Assembly: GCA_033764315.1 (NCBI GenBank)
Contig: JANRJA010000219.1
Location: forward strand, 1-41,834
Length of the DNA stretch: 41,834 nucleotides
Origin: Oculatellaceae cyanobacterium bins.114
GTDB taxonomy: Bacteria > Cyanobacteriota > Cyanobacteriia > Elainellales > Elainellaceae
Reading direction: 5' to 3'
The notes beneath the pieces were generated by a model. That model saw only the letters and a list, made by a program, of their open reading frames with translations, did not search any database and had not been told where the DNA came from. A program made the translations under genes and the position numbers. Within the stretch, counting starts at the first letter, position 1; every line of letters starts with the position of its first letter. Below are positions 1,931-28,078 of the stretch, one piece after another.

Positions 1931-2076
1931 AGGAGGTCGGAACCCTTAAGGGAAATAACAAACAGGATGTCTCCGACACATTACGAATGACATGCATCCC
2001 CATCCGGACAGACAAATTCCTTTAGAGCGAGTTTCAAACAGCATTAATGTTCTGTGAAAGACCCTTAAAACCAGAT

Positions 2077-3357
2077 CTAAAGTACGTTGCGCTTGAGATA
2101 AGGTTGCAACGCTTCCGGAACACGAATGGTGCCATCCGGTTGCTGATAGTTTTCTAAAATCGCTGACATCGTCCGCCCGATCGCCAATCCAGACCCGTTT
2201 AACGTGTGCACCAGTTGAGTGCCCTTTTTGCCTGCTTCTTTAAATCGAGTATTACCCCGTCGGGCTTGAAAATCGAGGCAATTGGAGCAACTTGAGATCT
2301 CGCGATACTTTCCGGCAGAGGGTAACCACACTTCTAAGTCGTAGGTTTTGGTTGCCGAGAACCCCAAATCACCTGTACACAACTCAATCACCCGATAAGG
2401 CAACTGGAGGGCTTGCAAAATACCTTCGGCACTGTGAGTCAGCGTTTCTAACTCTGCCATTGACGTGTCGGGATGGACAAACTTAAACATCTCGACTTTG
2501 TTGAATTGATGCAAACGAATCAAGCCACGGGTGTCTCGTCCATAACTACCTGCCTCCCGCCGAAAACAGGGGGTGTAGGCGCAGTAATAGAGGGGCAACT
2601 CTTCAAGGGTTAACGTTTCGTCGCGATGAAAGCTGTTGATCGGAACTTCAGCCGTGGGGGTTAACCACAGATCATCGTTTTTGCACTGAAAGCTTTCTTC
2701 TGCAAATTTGGGTAGCTGTCCAGAGGCGGTTAAGGATGCTGTGTTGACCAAAATTGGAGGCAATACTTCGGTGTATCCGGCCTGGATATGCTGGTCGAGC
2801 ATGAATTGAATCAGTGCTCGTTCTAACGCAGCACCTGCTCCAATCAAGGTAACGAAGCGGCTTTGAGCAATTTTAGCCGATCGCTCAAAGTTGAGAATAC
2901 CGAGTTTTTCGCCAATTTCCCAATGTGGCAAAATATCAGGATTTTGAGGGATATATTCATCGCCCCAACGTCTCACCTCAACGTTCTCTTCCTCGCTCTT
3001 GCCAACGGGAGTAGACTCGCTGGGCAGATTGGGAATCGCCAGCAAAATCGTCTCAATTTGAGCCTTCAATTCTTTTTCTTGAGGCTCTAACTCACCCAGT
3101 TGGGCTTTGATCTGGTTGCCCTCATCGCGTAATGCTTGAATCTCTGGATCTTGAGGATTTGTGCCAGATTTCATTTTTTGCCCGACCAGCTTACCGATCT
3201 CATTGCTGCGGGCTTGCAGTTGCGATCGCTCAACCTCTAGCGATCGCTGTTGTTGATCCAGCTCTAAAATCGGCTGCAAATCATACCCACCCCCACGCAA
3301 ATTCAACCGTTCTTGAACCTGCTTTGAGTTTTCGCGGATCAGTTTGAGATCAAGCAC
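2077..3357 (-). CDS. serS: Serine--tRNA ligase
   Basis: MLDLKLIR start (GTG), coiled-coil arm, [35 protein letters not shown] and [12 protein letters not shown] motifs. Confidence 0.98.
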
Positions 3358-3446
3358 AATACATCCTCAGTTGCTCAGTTACCATCTATTCTGCCAACTG
3401 ATCAAGATATCATCTCACGATGATTTATGCGGCAGGGTTCGTTATT

Positions 3447-5681
3447 CTAAGGCACATTTACGGGGATCAACGCATTCTCAGGGATATGCCCAACAAACCG
3501 CCCTTCCTCGACTAACATCACCACCAGCCGCAATGACCAATCGGGACCGATCCCATTTAGATCTGCCCACGGAATGGCCACTTCTAAGCACAACTCAAAG
3601 CAGACTTGAGCACCGTGATTTAAGGTTTTCCACTGGAAGTGTTCTCCCGCCTCCTGAAACCACACCTTTTGAGTCAACAAGTTGATCCCCAGGTGATGAT
3701 GGAACAAGTAATTCATTGGAGCATCATCGGGCAGATCAGCGATCGGGGCAGGGCTGTTGTGCATGGTGCGATCGGGGTAGAACCACAACAAATGCAACTC
3801 AGCCGGGAAATCAATACCTGGTCGTGATCCGGCTTTGAAATCGACCCGCAAATACAGATTTAAGTGGTCAACCCCATACCAGATGCGTTGAATCACGCTG
3901 CTCTGGTGCATCGTACCTCGTGCGCCCCCAATTTCAATGCGACCTGCCTTATCCCAATCTTGCTCATCACCGCGACCATCAATCACAGGGTGAATAAAGC
4001 TTTGAGGTTGGTGATCCCCTTGTCCAGTGTGCTCTTCAACGGGACGACGCACATCTGCCGGAACAGGCTCATTTAGTGCCCCGTAGAGGGCTGTGAGATG
4101 TTCTCGAAAGAGCTGATCAAACATGGCGTCTTGGTTAGAAGAGTGCCCCTCACCAAACCACCAAAACCAATCTGAGCCTTCTGCGGCATAGAGTGCCTCC
4201 CACGCTTCAGGATTGTTTTCTTCCGTTGCTTCGGGGTGATTGGCTAAGACCAACCGAGCTTGGGTTAACAAATCCCAGGCCCGGTTTTTAGCGGGGTCGC
4301 CAATCCAGGTTGTAAAGTTGCCATCTACCCAAGAGCCACTGTGCAACTGCTCAGTTGGCAGAGTCGCTGTCGGAGGAAACTGTTCGATGAACTCTGAAAC
4401 CGTCACTAACCGAATGTCTGAGTGTTCGCTCAAGCGTTCATACAAATTCTCCAGGAAGGGTTTTCCATCTAGAGAATAATATTCCCAACAGTTTTCACCA
4501 TCCAGAGCAATCGTCACTAGCCAGGGCTGTTCTAGGGCGGTGGTTTTGTTAGTCTGATGAGATTTAAGAGTCTGGGCGATCGCCTCTAAATGGCCTACTA
4601 AGTCTTTAGCCGCAACAGCAGGCTCCATTGCGCCATAAGTAAAGCCGATCAAATCAGACAAGCGGTGATCGCGAAAGACGATCGCCAAATCGCCCTGCGG
4701 CGTTTCTAAGCGATAGGGGCGATAAAGCAACTCTGGCTCCGAAACGTTGCCACGTCCATCGCGATGAAAGAAATGTTTGATCGTCCAGCCCAAAACGGCT
4801 TCATCTGAGCACAACCAGTTAAAGCCTTGCTCAGCCACATAGGGCAATATCGTTGGACTCACCGATTGCTCTGAGGGCCATAAACCACGAGGAGCACAGC
4901 CAAACCGCTCTTGATACATCTGTTTAGATTTGTGCAGATGCCGGGGAATATCTTCGGCCCATTGAAAACGAGCCTTTGGCAGATTCATTTGGGGAACCGC
5001 CACTCGCCCTGCATTTGTGTCAGCCAATAACGGCAGGATGGGATGGGTATAGGGTGTCGTTGTCACCTCTAGCTGCCCTGCATCTTGCATCTTGCGGTGT
5101 TGGGGAATGATGCGGCTGAGAATGTCACGCTGCTTTGAAAAGATACGCTGGCGATCGCTTAGAGTAAACCCACGGTCTTGTTTGAGCCATTGGGCAACCT
5201 CAGGATCATCCCAAAACAGGGGATCAATCCAGGACAGGTTATGCCATGCCAGCAAGTCGCTATACTCCTGATTGTCCCAGTGCAACAGGCACCACTCTTG
5301 CCCCTTTTCCTGGCGTTGATAGTACAACTCGGCATAGCGAGGATGGGGATCTATCAGCGTGCGATGATTGCCGTCAAAAAAGTGTTGAACTGCAAATTCT
5401 TTTTGTTCTAGGGTCAGTTGTTCGGTAGCGGTCAGAGCAACTGAAAGGTAGGGATCAATCGCCGTTCCAGCAACGTAATCTTCAATTTGCAGAATCAGGG
5501 AAGGCACCAAGTTTACAGTCTGATGCAACTTGGGATATTGCTCTAGCAGCAGCACCAAATCGAGGTAGTCTTTTGTGCCGTGTAGCCGTACCCAGGGCAG
5601 GCGATATTGACGGGCCGTGCGACTGAGATAGAGCGGTTGGTGCTGATGCCAAATAAACGCAACGTAAAGGGGATGGGACAT
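3447..5681 (-). CDS. Glycoside hydrolase family 57 (amylopullulanase-like)
   Basis: WHQHQP, HPILPLL, GLWPSE (nucleophile), ALDGEN (acid/base) and AEGSDWFWW motifs. Start moved to ATG at 5681 (MSHPLYVAF). Confidence 0.92.
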   Translation of the reverse strand: MSHPLYVAFIWHQHQPLYLSRTARQYRLPWVRLHGTKDYLDLVLLLEQYPKLHQTVNLVPSLILQIEDYVAGTAIDPYLSVALTATEQLTLEQKEFAVQHFFDGNHRTLIDPHPRYAELYYQRQEKGQEWCLLHWDNQEYSDLLAWHNLSWIDPLFWDDPEVAQWLKQDRGFTLSDRQRIFSKQRDILSRIIPQHRKMQDAGQLEVTTTPYTHPILPLLADTNAGRVAVPQMNLPKARFQWAEDIPRHLHKSKQMYQERFGCAPRGLWPSEQSVSPTILPYVAEQGFNWLCSDEAVLGWTIKHFFHRDGRGNVSEPELLYRPYRLETPQGDLAIVFRDHRLSDLIGFTYGAMEPAVAAKDLVGHLEAIAQTLKSHQTNKTTALEQPWLVTIALDGENCWEYYSLDGKPFLENLYERLSEHSDIRLVTVSEFIEQFPPTATLPTEQLHSGSWVDGNFTTWIGDPAKNRAWDLLTQARLVLANHPEATEENNPEAWEALYAAEGSDWFWWFGEGHSSNQDAMFDQLFREHLTALYGALNEPVPADVRRPVEEHTGQGDHQPQSFIHPVIDGRGDEQDWDKAGRIEIGGARGTMHQSSVIQRIWYGVDHLNLYLRVDFKAGSRPGIDFPAELHLLWFYPDRTMHNSPAPIADLPDDAPMNYLFHHHLGINLLTQKVWFQEAGEHFQWKTLNHGAQVCFELCLEVAIPWADLNGIGPDWSLRLVVMLVEEGRFVGHIPENALIPVNVP

Positions 5682-23682: not shown

Positions 23683-26600
23683 TTAAAATGGCACGTCATC
23701 GTCTGGGTCACCTCCAATAATAGGTGGCTCTGGTAAGGAACCGTTACCCTCTCCACGGGTGGCACTTCCACCGTCGAGATTGACAATTTGACCATTAAAC
23801 ATTTGTGCAAAGCTCTTGGCTGCCTTGGCAACATCATCTTCGTCTTGCCATGCGACTGGATGGCTAGAAGCCATATCCACCGGGGCAAGTGCAGGAGCCG
23901 AAGCCGCTGGAGCAGGCGATCCACCCGGCATTCTTTGACTCGCATCTGGTTGATGAGAGGCTGAATGACGGGTTGGTGAATTGTTAGAGGCTGAATTGCT
24001 AGAGGCTGAATTGCTAGAGGCTGAATGATCGGTCGCTGGGTAACTGGGAGAAGGAGGTGATTTGGCGATCGGCTTGGTTTCTGAGGGTTGAGGTCTAGCC
24101 GCAGGAGCCGCTGAGGGTTCAGCTTGTGTCTCTATTGTTCCTGCTGCCATCACCGCTAGGCTGACTTTAATTTTGCGATCGAGCACTTTTTGAAACGCTT
24201 CTTCTACATCAGGCAATTTGCTCTGAGCAATTTTGAACAGGTTTTGACTGCTGATGCCGATTTCAGCTTGATACTCCTTTAAAGCCAATAGCCGTCCGTG
24301 ATCTTTAAGCAGAGCCTTGCTGAGGGGATGCAAATGCTCAATGATTTGTTGCCAGATGTGCTGCAAATCAGGAGCAAAACTGGGAACTGGAGTCGTCTCA
24401 ACGGGTTGGGCTTGGTCAGGGGGTTCAGCGGCAAGGCTCTCTGCTTCAACCGTTTTAGCCACAAACCCTTGACCGTTGGTCATACTTGACTCAGACTGCG
24501 ATGGCTGAGGGGTTGGAGTGGGCGGTTGAGGACGCGGACTGGGTGCAGGAGAAGCGGTAGGTGCAGGCTGACTGACAGGGGGTGGAGCTTGGCGGGTAGA
24601 AGTTGGGGATTGGGACGGGCTGCGGATTGATATTGCCTGCTCTGGAGCCGCCGTGGCGATCGCCGATGGCAACAATCCCATTAACGTTACTTCTAACCAC
24701 AATCGCGGCTGACTGGTATTCTTAATCTGCGCTTCACTGCTGCGTAAATGCTTTTGCCCTGCCAAAATCCAGGGGATATCTACCGACTGCACAAAAGCAC
24801 ACATCTTAGTCCAGGTCGAAGCAGTAATTGCCACAAGATCTTGGCGATCGGGTGCCGTTTTGGCAATCAGCAAATCTCGATAAAAGCTGGCGAGGTTTTG
24901 CAGCACAATCAACGGCTCCCGTCCTCGATCCATCAAATGGCGGGTTTTGTCGATCACTGCCGTAGGAGCATCCTGGGCGATCGCCACGGCTAGTTCTAAT
25001 AACTCTCGCTCTGGGACTGCCCCGACCAGATCCCAAACTCGCTCAACCGTGATCTCTCCCTCTAACAAGCTCAGCTGATCGAGCAAACTCTCCGCATCCC
25101 GCAATCCTCCCTGTGCGATTTGCGCCACCAGTTGAGTTGCTTCAGGGGCGATCGCGATCGCCTCTTTTTGAGCAATCATTCCTAAATGCTGCACCATGTC
25201 TTGTAAGTCAATGCGCCGAAAGTCAAACCGTTGACAACGCGAAATGATCGTGGGCAAAACTTTCTGTGGGTCAGTTGTGGCGAGAACAAACACAACGCGA
25301 TCGGGCGGTTCCTCCAGGGTTTTGAGCAGAGCATTGAACGCTGCCGTACTTAACATGTGGCAGTTATGGACTAATAGCCCATTAGCCACAAAATTATGGT
25401 TGTCTTCTACTTCAATGTCATAAACCTGTTCAACTCCAGCGAGGTGAACAGATTTGACCGTCTCCAAATTTGTATTCCATTGAGGGAATGGAATAGGGTT
25501 CGAGGTCTGACAGCCATTTTCGTGAGGCGTTTGCTCCCATTCGGAGATAGTAATAGGTCTTTTGTTTAGCGGCTCGAATGTAGGAGTTAGCTGTGGTTGC
25601 ATAACCCATTGACGTAAGCCAATCAGCCATGAGTTGATTTTCTGCCAAAGAATATCCCTCAGTGTGGAATTGGATTTGATGGCTGCCTTGAGGGCTAAGG
25701 TAAAGGGAGCCGTCATCCATGTACCACCAAGCCAGTCCTTCGGGCGTAATTTGTTTAAGCCAATCGAGAGAAACGTATTTCTGTTTCCCGTTGGGTTTGA
25801 CGGTGTCAAAGATTTCTGCCAACTGTGGATGGCAAGCCGTGTTACCACAAACTGATCGTTCTCCATAACCAGCGTTTGAGGTTGCTCTAAAGGTTGGCCG
25901 CAGGTCTGAGAGCCGCTGTGCCTTGTACTCCAACCACTCCTGTTGCGCTGCTCCGTGAGTCCACGCCAACCTTGGAAATCGACTATGTGAGTTGGGGTAG
26001 CCAATGGAACAGTCGCCCAACAGGGTTCCGTAGATAAGTCCCCGTATTTCTGGTGATAGATATTCTGACTCTGCAATAAATTTGGTCGTTCTAAGTTCCC
26101 AGATGCCGTGATTTTTTTGGTAAGGATGTCGTTTCCAATACGATTGAATGCTGCCGATGCCGCGTCCTTTGCGCCGCAAAAAATTTGGGATATCCAGTTT
26201 TTCATGACATCCACAAGCACATAGCAGGCGGAGCGGCTCAGCTTGCTCCAAAATGCTGTCCACACAATAATCTCTTTGCCCGTAGGAATTGCCTTTAAAC
26301 TGGTGCCCTCTGGCAAAGCGGCGAACCCGTCCATCCGTTCCAAATTTAAAGATGGGGGTGCCACATCCACACTCACAGGGGATAGTATCCTCACTCCTTC
26401 TTTGACGTCTTTGACGGCTATCCATCCCTGTTCAGTCCTGATTAGATGGTTCCCTGTACAACAAATCTCACGATTCTCCGTTTTAATGACGTAAGTTTGC
26501 CGCCTCCCCTGGTCTAGCCAGCGAACAACTGGCTTAAACTCCCACTGGTTAGTAGCATCGTTGTAGCTCAAAACTTTTCTGGCTTGAATAGCAGGATCAT

Positions 26601-27039
26601 CGATGCGACACAATCCTTGATCTGTCAGTACTAGGGCATCGCCTGTTAAGCATTCGTCCACCACATAAACTTTATAGCGACACTGCACGGGGGCAAACTG
26701 CGATCGCTCAATCAGTTCCCGAATGTTATCAACCCCGGTGTTGCTGGCAGCGTCAATCTCAATCACATCTAAAGCAGAGCCGTTGGCGATCGCCCGACAT
26801 ACCTCACAGATGCCACAAGGCTGTGCCGTGGGAACATCTCCACTCTGGCAGTTTAAAGACTTGGCAAAAATTCGCGCACTGGAGGTTTTGCCGGTACCCC
26901 GTGCTCCTGTAAACAGATAGGCAGGCGCAATCCGTTGCTGTTGCAGGGCATTGGTCAGGGTTTGCGCGATCGCTCCCTGCCCCACTAGCTCAGCAAACGT
27001 TTGAGGACGATATTTGTGGTGAAGCGGTTCGTACGGCAT
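23683..27039 (-). CDS. dnaX: DNA polymerase III subunit gamma/tau, intein-containing precursor (1118 aa; 688 aa after splicing)
   Basis: MPYEPLHHKYRPQTF start (ATG at 27039, GGAG upstream), GARGTGKTS, Zn module, EIDAASNTGVD, DE|CHML, NALLKTLEEPP, SRCQRFDF; ends DDDVPF. Confidence 0.97.
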   Translation of the reverse strand: MPYEPLHHKYRPQTFAELVGQGAIAQTLTNALQQQRIAPAYLFTGARGTGKTSSARIFAKSLNCQSGDVPTAQPCGICEVCRAIANGSALDVIEIDAASNTGVDNIRELIERSQFAPVQCRYKVYVVDECLTGDALVLTDQGLCRIDDPAIQARKVLSYNDATNQWEFKPVVRWLDQGRRQTYVIKTENREICCTGNHLIRTEQGWIAVKDVKEGVRILSPVSVDVAPPSLNLERMDGFAALPEGTSLKAIPTGKEIIVWTAFWSKLSRSACYVLVDVMKNWISQIFCGAKDAASAAFNRIGNDILTKKITASGNLERPNLLQSQNIYHQKYGDLSTEPCWATVPLATPTHIVDFQGWRGLTEQRNRSGWSTRHSGSQTCGQPLEQPQTLVMENDQFVVTRLAIHSWQKSLTPSNPTGNRNTFLSIGLNKLRPKDWLGGTWMTAPFTLALKAAIKSNSTLRDILWQKINSWLIGLRQWVMQPQLTPTFEPLNKRPITISEWEQTPHENGCQTSNPIPFPQWNTNLETVKSVHLAGVEQVYDIEVEDNHNFVANGLLVHNCHMLSTAAFNALLKTLEEPPDRVVFVLATTDPQKVLPTIISRCQRFDFRRIDLQDMVQHLGMIAQKEAIAIAPEATQLVAQIAQGGLRDAESLLDQLSLLEGEITVERVWDLVGAVPERELLELAVAIAQDAPTAVIDKTRHLMDRGREPLIVLQNLASFYRDLLIAKTAPDRQDLVAITASTWTKMCAFVQSVDIPWILAGQKHLRSSEAQIKNTSQPRLWLEVTLMGLLPSAIATAAPEQAISIRSPSQSPTSTRQAPPPVSQPAPTASPAPSPRPQPPTPTPQPSQSESSMTNGQGFVAKTVEAESLAAEPPDQAQPVETTPVPSFAPDLQHIWQQIIEHLHPLSKALLKDHGRLLALKEYQAEIGISSQNLFKIAQSKLPDVEEAFQKVLDRKIKVSLAVMAAGTIETQAEPSAAPAARPQPSETKPIAKSPPSPSYPATDHSASSNSASSNSASNNSPTRHSASHQPDASQRMPGGSPAPAASAPALAPVDMASSHPVAWQDEDDVAKAAKSFAQMFNGQIVNLDGGSATRGEGNGSLPEPPIIGGDPDDDVPF
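23978..24026 (+). repeat. 15-bp tandem repeat in the dnaX low-complexity linker (SASSN x3)
   Basis: (TAGAGGCTGAATTGC) about 3 copies. Confidence 0.85.
25363..26652 (-). mobile_element. DnaX intein, 430 aa, inserted in Walker B (VVDE / CHML)
   Basis: Begins CLTGDALV (block A), has TGNH (block B), ends VYDIEVEDNHNFVANGLLVHN with Cys+1. Removal restores DECHML. Confidence 0.96.
25430..26425 (-). CDS. LAGLIDADG homing endonuclease encoded in the -1 frame inside the dnaX intein
   Basis: 331-aa ORF with ATG; two LAGLIDADG motifs (IYGTLLGDCSI, LAWWYMDDGSL); N-terminal CECGCG and CACGC repeats; C-terminal PSMEYKF. Confidence 0.9.
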   Translation of the reverse strand: MDSRQRRQRRSEDTIPCECGCGTPIFKFGTDGRVRRFARGHQFKGNSYGQRDYCVDSILEQAEPLRLLCACGCHEKLDIPNFLRRKGRGIGSIQSYWKRHPYQKNHGIWELRTTKFIAESEYLSPEIRGLIYGTLLGDCSIGYPNSHSRFPRLAWTHGAAQQEWLEYKAQRLSDLRPTFRATSNAGYGERSVCGNTACHPQLAEIFDTVKPNGKQKYVSLDWLKQITPEGLAWWYMDDGSLYLSPQGSHQIQFHTEGYSLAENQLMADWLTSMGYATTANSYIRAAKQKTYYYLRMGANASRKWLSDLEPYSIPSMEYKFGDGQICSPRWS

Positions 27040-27340
27040 GGGTTTACTCCTATCCTCTAGGGTAAGCGATCGCCAACCAGGATCTGTCTCATGACAGAAC
27101 AAAGCAATAGGATTTTTGAGTCTCGAATACAATAGAGTGATAAGAAAAAAGAAGAGAGAAAAAAGAGACTGACTCCAGCACGACTAACGGCTGACCCAAT
27201 GTGCAATTTGCCGAGCGTACGACAAAAAGGGAGTCAAGGTAATCAGGCGTCCCCCTCTCTCTTCGTTTATTGCTTTCTTTTCCTCTCATCCTTTAGCCTT
27301 TTTCCTCTCTCTTCTTTTTTCCTTCTTCTTTTTTCCTCCT

Positions 27341-28078
27341 ATGGACAGCATGAACGACATTACTATTCAGGCGTTTTCACTAGCGCAGTTAGTGTTAGAC
27401 ACGTTGCTGCCAGATGACCTAGAGCAAGAGGTGCGTCAGGTGGGGCAGGTGCTGACAGAGCAAGAGTCTGAGGCCGTGACCTGCATCCACCACTTAGTAG
27501 ACCATCATGGCTGTCTTCGCAAACCCTATGAAGTGGTTTACGGCAATTTGCAAGACCATCGTCAACGCTTACAACAAGTCAACTTCAACATTCAAGATAT
27601 TAGCCGTTCTGTAGCACCCCATTGGAAACCCGTCGCGGCTTCCCTGTTGCTGGCCGATAATCCCCGTGAAACGGCTCGATTAGTCACCAAAAAAATGTTG
27701 GCTCAAGTTGATTTTCGCGGAACCTTGAATGGGTTACATGCCTTTTGGTCAACCTTGGTTCAAATCGTGCAAGATTTAGAGTTTCAGGAAACCGCTATTT
27801 TGCGATCGCTGATTCGCCATCCGATGACGATTGAAGACTTGAGCCATACTCTGGGAATGCCGCTCGATCATGTGCAGGCGATCGTGGCTTCTCTCTGGGC
27901 CGCAGGGGCGATCGATGTTACTAGAGGCAACTTACTACACCGACTGTTGCCAACACGCAAGCCTGAATCACAGCTTAAAAAAGAAATTGACCCGGGTGAT
28001 TACTTTACGATGACGATGCGAGGACACTTTCGCCTGCGCCCTCTGGTTAAACTGGCGGAGCCTCAAGGGGTAATTTAA
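27341..28078 (+). CDS. Hypothetical protein with C-terminal winged-helix-like segment
   Basis: 245-aa ORF; ETAILRSL..HPMTIEDLSHTLGMPLDHVQAIVASLW..GAI resembles a wHTH. Confidence 0.65.
   Translation: MDSMNDITIQAFSLAQLVLDTLLPDDLEQEVRQVGQVLTEQESEAVTCIHHLVDHHGCLRKPYEVVYGNLQDHRQRLQQVNFNIQDISRSVAPHWKPVAASLLLADNPRETARLVTKKMLAQVDFRGTLNGLHAFWSTLVQIVQDLEFQETAILRSLIRHPMTIEDLSHTLGMPLDHVQAIVASLWAAGAIDVTRGNLLHRLLPTRKPESQLKKEIDPGDYFTMTMRGHFRLRPLVKLAEPQGVI

Follow-up and report, generated by a model that had tools for sequence, protein, structure and literature searches.

The dnaX gene (DNA polymerase III gamma/tau) of Oculatellaceae cyanobacterium bins.114 very probably harbours a composite selfish element: an intein within which a self-standing gene for a LAGLIDADG homing endonuclease is nested, on the same strand and in the -1 frame. 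The element was analysed in a stretch of 41,834 nucleotides (assembly GCA_033764315.1, contig JANRJA010000219.1, positions 1 to 41,834), referred to here as the window; all genes, domains and signals for which coordinates are given lie on its reverse strand. In the mechanism we propose, the class-1 intein would be synthesised within the DnaX precursor, and only its self-splicing would yield a working clamp-loader subunit. The nuclease would be made by independent initiation at a conserved ATG inside the dnaX message and would cleave dnaX alleles that lack the intein, at the VVDE/CHML codons, and repair of the break would then copy in the entire element. Ribosomes translating dnaX would read through the nuclease gene out of frame, giving a linker of ∼ 280 residues whose sole requirement would be the absence of stops and which would be discarded with the intein.

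Anatomy of the intein and its nested nuclease gene

The intein (25363..26652) interrupts the Walker B motif of dnaX at its DE/CH site. Its junctions read VVDE/CLTGD...LLVHN/CHML, which gives 430 codons. The marks of a class-1 intein are all present: an N-terminal Cys1 (codon 26652-26650), block B (CTGNHLIRT, T-x-x-H, including the TGNH motif), a C-terminal His-Asn preceded by Val (His-Asn 25368-25363, Asn codon 25365-25363) and a +1 Cys (25362-25360). The Intein_splicing family (PF14890) matches dnaX residues 183-590 (E = 2e-13, 50.9 bits versus a cut-off of 35.8). These boundaries and coordinates reproduce those of the original prediction, which had been made from the sequence alone and had seen no endonuclease motifs in the centre of the intein; indeed, Pfam detects no endonuclease family in its dnaX-frame reading.

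Two splicing domains flank the centre, both with amino-acid constraint in the dnaX frame. The N-terminal domain covers approximately intein codons 1-104 (26341..26652), its extent being taken from 138-aa mini-inteins (see below), and pairwise dnaX-frame identity over codons 1-100 is 0.56-0.73 among the full-length copies described in the next section. The C-terminal domain (approximately codons 394-430, 25363..25473) is kept in the mini-inteins and reaches an identity of 0.74-0.97 over codons 401-430. Between them, the dnaX-frame read-through of the nuclease gene (approximately codons 105-380, 25513..26340) is a stop-free linker without amino-acid constraint (identity 0.35-0.47). At the matching position, 19 intein-free relatives show an unbroken V(V/I/L)DE(C/V)HML. 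Removal of the in-frame insertion would thus restore the conserved host motif DECH, and the earlier claim that splicing is needed for this is borne out by the uninterrupted VVDECHML of intein-free relatives. We predict that the window copy is competent for splicing.

The nuclease gene (25430..26425, 331 codons plus stop) is offset by +2 (-1) from dnaX. It overlaps the ends of both splicing domains, by ∼ 28 codons on the N-terminal side and ∼ 14 codons on the C-terminal side, as had been proposed. Its product matches LAGLIDADG_2 (PF03161) with E = 1.2e-20 (74.5 bits, cut-off 25), which agrees with the original identification of a same-strand, -1-frame ORF of 331 aa (26425 to 25430) that has both LAGLIDADG motifs with their acidic residues. 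Motif 1 (GLIYGTLLGDCSI, 26003..26041) contains the catalytic Asp138 in LIYGTLLGD138, and motif 2 (GLAWWYMDDGSLY, 25700..25738) contains Asp237 and Asp238 in WWYMD237D238G. D138 and D237/D238 are invariant across 37 aligned homologues.

A profile built from these 37 homologues retrieves I-WcaI (6x1j, 7.3e-11) and I-SceI (∼ 1e-7) from the PDB over residues 107-323. Prediction with AlphaFold 2 (AF2) from the single sequence gave a pLDDT of 32.7, and we therefore used an alignment-based model, whose mean pLDDT is 85.8 and whose core is mostly above 90. A Foldseek search with this model returned I-SceI (1r7m) at 1.5e-11 and a target TM score of 0.76, the range for I-SceI and I-WcaI together being 0.75-0.76. 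By family and by predicted fold, the -1-frame protein is thus an I-SceI-like monomeric LAGLIDADG endonuclease. The invariance of its catalytic Asp residues, the AF2 model, the Foldseek result and the PDB profile together make the window nuclease look intact. Fold and two-motif architecture match those of I-SceI and I-WcaI (1r7m, 6x1j) over residues ∼ 107-323, at 17-20% identity. However, I-SceI and I-WcaI are encoded in introns and not in an intein, and the window nuclease has an additional N-terminal extension of ∼ 105 residues with two Cys-rich modules.

This extension (residues 1-106) holds both modules, each of the form Cys-x-Cys-Gly-Cys ... His. In the first (residues 17-41, 26303..26377), C17, C19, G20, C21, G22 and H41 are invariant or nearly so; in the second (residues 69-106, 26108..26221), C69, C71, G72, C73, W97, H100, P101 and H106 are at least 90% conserved. 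No Pfam family matches residues 1-122 of the window nuclease, even at E ≤ 1, and a protein atlas search with the Cys-rich extension gave no match above 0.78, its hits being leads only. DUF6527 matches relatives only, at the repeat: P0035 with 4.3e-08 (33.4 bits, cut-off 23.6) and P0062 with 0.0012 (19.2 bits), the latter under the cut-off. A metal-dependent role of the modules in DNA binding is putative.

Selection on the two frames and probable expression of the nuclease

The -1-frame protein served as query against 401 genomes of the phylum. Of 28 genomes with a match, 12, including the window genome, carry a full-length copy. In all 12, which come from different cyanobacterial genomes, the intein has exactly 430 codons, none of them a stop in the dnaX frame, and an ATG at intein nt 228 opens a nuclease frame of 323-331 codons. 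No internal stop occurs between this shared ATG and the nuclease's own stop, in reply to the original suggestion that close homologues be inspected for stops in the -1 frame; two matches flagged for one TGA have earlier natural stops of the nuclease. The third frame contains 18-35 stops across the 12 copies (19 in the window).

The same comparison bears on whether the offset is a sequencing or assembly artefact, in which two compensating indels disguise a canonical intein with an in-frame nuclease. The window is from a draft assembly of 251 contigs, and the gene calls P0050 and P0056 switch from the dnaX to the nuclease frame in the middle of the linker and resemble contigs with a single indel. 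Yet offset, 430-codon length and ATG position recur in each of 12 independent genomes, several of which are assembled into a single contig, and an equal offset is found in a 516-codon variant and in three phage helicase inteins (see below). The shared layout excludes the compensating errors that had been named as a risk, and we regard an artefact as hardly credible.

Openness of the dnaX frame was assessed by shuffling synonymous codons of the nuclease ORF (2000 trials per locus) and counting stops in the dnaX frame. For the window, the shuffles had a mean of 5.0 stops, compared with 0 observed, and a single trial of 2000 was stop-free. Across the 12 loci the mean expectation was 2.0-8.3 stops; nine other loci gave 0-9 stop-free outcomes per 2000, and the remaining two gave 37 and 126. 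Since a stop-free outcome is so rare under synonymous shuffling, we conclude that openness of the dnaX frame is selected.

Amino-acid constraint, by contrast, resides in the nuclease frame. Saturated pairs aside, pairwise Nei-Gojobori dN/dS over the 322 codons shared by the 12 copies has a median of 0.17 for the nuclease frame (53 of 66 pairs) versus 1.06 for the dnaX frame (66 of 66). For the non-overlapped parts of the splicing domains, where 10 and 18 of 66 pairs could be used, the values are 0.12 and 0.04, respectively. Mean pairwise amino-acid identity in the overlap is 0.644 for the nuclease frame, 0.416 for the dnaX frame and 0.407 for the unused third frame, and nucleotide divergence is concentrated at third positions of nuclease codons (0.50 versus 0.30 and 0.21). 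A sliding window of 20 codons locates constraint in the dnaX frame at codons 1-80 and 401-430, in both frames at codons 81-100 and 381-400, and in the nuclease frame only at codons 101-380. Codons 81-100 are under true dual constraint, the end of the splicing domain lying over the N-terminus of the nuclease.

Thus, the nuclease is the constrained gene, and its dnaX reading is a stop-free spacer that is otherwise as free as a non-coding frame. The frame-specific dN/dS analysis that the original prediction had proposed places purifying selection across the overlap in the nuclease frame alone and not in the dnaX frame. This reverses one element of that prediction, which had called the nuclease 'overprinted', that is, the newcomer frame. 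The free-standing and in-frame homologues of the nuclease (see below) and the stronger constraint on the nuclease frame speak against a gene overprinted de novo.

The ATG of the nuclease gene (26423..26425) lies within GGA-TGG, the codons for a Gly-Trp of the intein. Each of the 12 copies has GGATGG and, with it, the ATG at intein nt 228. Upstream of it, the nuclease frame contains a TGA (26432..26434) separated from the ATG by two codons (ACA GGG); the original prediction had noted an in-frame TGA three codons before the ATG, and it is seen at 26434-26432. A Shine-Dalgarno-like tetramer, AGGA (26436..26439), precedes the ATG with a 10-nt spacer. It is formed by the Arg-Thr codons of block B and is a consensus match only.

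Initiation within the dnaX message was weighed against programmed -1 ribosomal frameshifting from the dnaX frame, which would yield a fusion of N-extein, N-intein and nuclease and which the original prediction had also considered. Escherichia coli dnaX uses a -1 frameshift to make gamma, and the nuclease is indeed in the -1 frame of dnaX. However, the TGA three codons upstream of the ATG stands in the way in the window, and none of the 12 loci has a slippery heptamer (X_XXY_YYZ) in the interval from the nearest preceding stop to the ATG (three codons in the window). In addition, all 12 copies retain the ATG, and one homologue, in L117 (see below), is a separate ORF that has its own start. Frameshifting is therefore highly improbable. 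The conserved ATG, the missing heptamer and the free-standing homologue instead favour internal initiation on the dnaX message, which is most likely the route of expression. Such a route may uncouple nuclease dosage from DnaX, as the original prediction had proposed.

Several points weigh against a nuclease gene that is expressed and active within the intein. The AGGA is found at -14 in just 8 of 12 loci and is made of conserved intein codons, so it may be incidental. A consensus scan of 2.1 kb (25300-27400) detected no sigma-70-like promoter upstream of the nuclease ATG; its one site (25421-25393) is downstream of the nuclease stop, and 1.6 sites are expected from shuffles. A look-up of sequencing runs for 25000-27200 returned none, and a full-text search found no literature naming the Synechocystis locus tag sll1360. 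Cleavage activity and target site of this nuclease family are predicted, and selection was measured clade-wide, which does not prove present activity of the window copy.

Distribution, shortened alleles and relatives outside dnaX

In the window genome and its 20 nearest relatives dnaX is always present, but only two of these genomes, the window's and one other of its family (G407), have the intein. A genome of the same genus is intein-free, with exteins 96% and 94% identical to those of the window. The insertion site of the 19 intein-free relatives is DECH in 15 and DEVH in four. The DEVH alleles (L129, L131, L132 and L139, in G410, G406, G408 and G402) have no +1 Cys, which is required for splicing; judging from this residue they could not host a functional copy of the intein, and their nuclease target may differ. 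The G407 intein (L127, G407:C189) is 516 codons long and its dnaX frame is open throughout. Its -1-frame nuclease, which appears identical to the database protein P0039, has 409 aa and three CACGCGE...H modules, compared with two in the window; the database relatives P0034, P0035 and P0045 have 3-4. In the phylum search the closest relative of the window nuclease (70% identity) belongs to another family. The distribution is patchy and independent of taxonomy, which we take as a sign of mobility.

The phylum search yielded 18 further loci. Five are weaker, unrelated LAGLIDADG matches without the dnaX intein pattern, two are duplicates and 11 are shortened dnaX inteins of 138-339 codons, all with an open dnaX frame. 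The N-terminus of the nuclease (MD.S...CECGCG) could be recovered in the nuclease frame of 10 of these 11, and in most of the 10 the nuclease C-terminus (...GRICSPRWS) follows it directly. An early stop closes the nuclease frame in L019 and L028. L016 begins with GTG rather than ATG; the context GGATGG is otherwise retained, one shortened intein having GGGTGG. The sampled mini-inteins are thus recent derivatives and not ancestral, having arisen from the full element by internal deletions of a multiple of three. An engineered mini-intein from the Synechocystis PCC 6803 (Ssp) DnaX intein splices efficiently in E. coli, according to the available part of that report (PMC6486613). Together with the natural 138-aa forms, which keep the dnaX frame open, this fits a central region that is dispensable for splicing.

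The frequency of such losses raises the question of whether the window ORF is a relic, that is, a once working nuclease that is now silent or inactive but too young to have decayed. The 11 shortened inteins (138-339 aa) are deletion derivatives and indicate that the nuclease is often lost, and the clade-wide dN/dS says nothing about the terminal branch that leads to the window. We nevertheless consider a relic unlikely: the window ORF has its full length of 331 codons and has kept both catalytic Asp residues and all invariant columns, the intein-free genome of the same genus fits a recent gain by homing, and dN/dS is 0.17 across the clade.

Purifying selection indicates that the protein has a function but not which one, and the conserved Cys modules have no assigned role. 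The -1-frame protein could in principle have been domesticated for a function of the host or the intein other than homing, for instance as a DNA-binding regulator or a maturase-like helper. Against such a role stand the invariant catalytic Asp of both LAGLIDADG motifs, a patchy distribution that does not follow taxonomy and the frequent, tolerated loss of the nuclease, and we judge it very unlikely. A homing endonuclease gene that is maintained within the intein is the reading we retain.

Relatives outside dnaX were sought by scans of viral contigs and phage records and by frame-by-frame tblastn. The out-of-frame layout recurs in genes of superfamily 2 (SF2) helicases (ResIII/Helicase_C), where the intein is inserted at DE/CH of motif II and the nuclease is again at -1. 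Such loci are present in two IMG/VR contigs (L035/L115 and L036/L116) and in gp40 of Xanthomonas phage FoX3. They are the closest relatives outside dnaX, with 34-42% identity in the N-terminal splicing domain and 36-40% in the nuclease core. In FoX3 (MT161383; L124 2393-3151), a LAGLIDADG ORF of 252 codons lies within gp40 in the +2 frame of the intein of a 'putative DNA helicase'; it is without Cys modules and is unannotated in the record.

A different arrangement is seen in L117 (IMGVR_UViG_3300027896_004357, 2007-4677), in which a break at motif II divides a phage SF2 helicase gene among three ORFs. The first encodes the N-terminal helicase part and the N-intein, the second the LAGLIDADG nuclease on its own, likewise bearing two Cys modules, and the third, which begins directly after the nuclease stop, the C-intein and the C-terminal helicase part. 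L117 is a 'fractured gene' whose nuclease is of the LAGLIDADG type. In Pectobacterium phage Amona the three ORFs overlap (frames 0/+2/0), and the annotation names the middle ORF a homing endonuclease. In the hit table, four related Pectobacterium phage records have a nuclease match under mixed annotations (homing endonuclease, DNA helicase, hypothetical protein). In the relatives L117 and L125 the N- and C-terminal parts of the host gene are thus carried by different ORFs.

Many canonical inteins have an in-frame and more distant nuclease core (22-30% identity by tblastn). An unrooted maximum likelihood tree of 60 nuclease cores groups the 12 dnaX rows in one clade (98/92) and 31 of 35 in-frame rows in another (100/99), and leaves the out-of-frame, fractured and free-standing rows unresolved between them. 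The rows were collected by pattern scans, and two of seven mixed-frame labels (L069, L122) may be wrong. The tree is compatible with the nuclease having been an independent gene that entered the Hint domain, a direction that an unrooted tree does not itself give.

Some database proteins combine the parts in other ways. P0062 has a dnaX-like N-extein, the N-intein and the nuclease in one frame and terminates at the end of the nuclease; P0059 has the nuclease, the C-intein and a clamp-loader-like C-extein in one frame. These two may be half-fused intermediates, in which one half of a split intein is fused to the nuclease, or contigs with indels. The gene calls P0050 and P0056 begin with DnaX and the N-intein and terminate at the stop of the nuclease; both resemble metagenome contigs with a single indel or dead alleles.

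As a wider scheme, which we find plausible but would not yet favour, the out-of-frame layout may be one state of a mobile composite of a Hint domain and an I-SceI-like nuclease with Cys modules. Such a composite would home into DE/CH (Walker B / motif II) of unrelated P-loop NTPases, which are the clamp loader encoded by dnaX and SF2 helicases of phages. Gain or loss of stops in the host frame would suffice to convert a contiguous, cis-splicing form into a fractured one of three ORFs, presumably trans-splicing, and back, with P0062 and P0059 as intermediates. Target recognition might be retuned by changes in how many Cys modules are present, two in the window and 3-4 in relatives.

The host gene of the window is a dnaX precursor ORF (23683..27132) identified by its open frame and Pfam matches, with 1149 aa when counted from the first TTG. 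Pfam assigns DNA_pol3_delta2 (6.1e-40), DNA_pol3_gamma3, DNAX_ATPase_lid and Intein_splicing to it. The start is likely the ATG at 27039, since homologues have a conserved N-terminus (MPYEPLHHKYRP, MxYxPLHHKYRP) there. The C-terminal third of DnaX (23683-24700) is a long, low-complexity tail rich in Pro, Ser and Ala (for example SASSNSASSNSASNNS), which comes after a STICHEL-type DnaA_N-like domain (PF23007, 1.5e-12).

HIP1 (GCGATCGC) occurs 72 times in the window, with eight of these sites in the dnaX exteins. No site lies between 25162 and 26699 and hence none in the intein, as the first reading of the sequence had remarked in noting several sites in the dnaX flanks. This suggests a foreign or young insert, although weakly, because the density of sites across the window predicts about 2.2 in 1290 bases. 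GC content is 0.45-0.51 in the intein versus 0.49-0.59 in the exteins.

Precedents and biological meaning

An out-of-frame nuclease in cyanobacterial dnaX has already been published. Phillips, DeSimone and Gogarten (bioRxiv 10.64898/2026.09.14.751524) describe, in the part of the preprint available to us, an out-of-frame '+2ORF' LAGLIDADG nuclease in cyanobacterial dnaX, an AlphaFold 3 (AF3) model superposed on 6X1J, motifs resembling Shine-Dalgarno sites, omega values that depend on the frame in 123 sequences, a sporadic distribution and the coexistence of empty, mini and full alleles. They credit Liu and Hu 1997 with the intein and Gorbalenya 1998 with the alternate-frame nuclease. The same part of the preprint also confirms the 430-residue Synechocystis DnaX intein as a precedent, which the original prediction had named.

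As far as these sources can be compared, the window element is like the Ssp DnaX intein in host gene, DE/CH site, length of 430 codons, strand and frame offset, and like the published cyanobacterial DnaX inteins in frame-dependent selection and in an I-WcaI/I-SceI-like fold. Nothing essential differs, the window nuclease being at most 70% identical to the others found. The preprint reports the source of the nuclease as not found, and the words 'helicase', 'fractured' and 'split' are absent from its text; relatives in phage helicases and fractured genes are, to that extent, additions of the present work. Added here are the intein-free congener, the mini-inteins as in-frame deletions and the occurrence of the DE/CH unit in phage SF2 helicases, either contiguous or as three ORFs.

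In its available part, a second preprint (bioRxiv 10.1101/2025.01.02.630785) terms the Synechocystis case 'anti-sense', whereas the copies described here are all on the same strand. Two same-strand copies that were examined come from single-contig genomes of 3.6-3.7 Mb. The actinobacteriophage inteins reported there resemble the window in that a nuclease ORF is nested centrally outside the intein frame and the host-frame read-through has no recognisable fold. They differ in the enzyme, which is endonuclease VII-like in frame 3, or LAGLIDADG or Vsr-like in antisense, and in the host genes (terminase, polymerase, capsid and thymidylate synthase), again as far as that part of the preprint goes.

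Fractured genes (Dassa et al., 2009, PMC2677866) have a form that is matched by the relatives L117 and Amona but not by the window, where the host frame is open through the whole intein, which is contiguous and presumably cis-splicing. Their nucleases, in the portion of the article at hand, are GIY-YIG and Vsr-like enzymes and not LAGLIDADG as in the window.

Because the layout was already published for dnaX and for this phylum, the element offers no new principle. Its remaining value lies in the links among contiguous, fractured and canonical forms and in the proposed mechanism of expression. It is an example of ∼ 1 kb read in two frames, one of which is under full protein constraint while the other must merely avoid stops. 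It is also relevant to annotation: pipelines miss the nuclease gene, as in Xanthomonas phage FoX3, and about a quarter of 62 database homologues are named, mostly as 'hypothetical protein'. The finding bears on models of intein gain and of the loss of homing endonucleases. For the cyanobacterium, it would mean that an essential clamp-loader subunit is available only if splicing tolerates ∼ 280 linker residues whose sequence is arbitrary.

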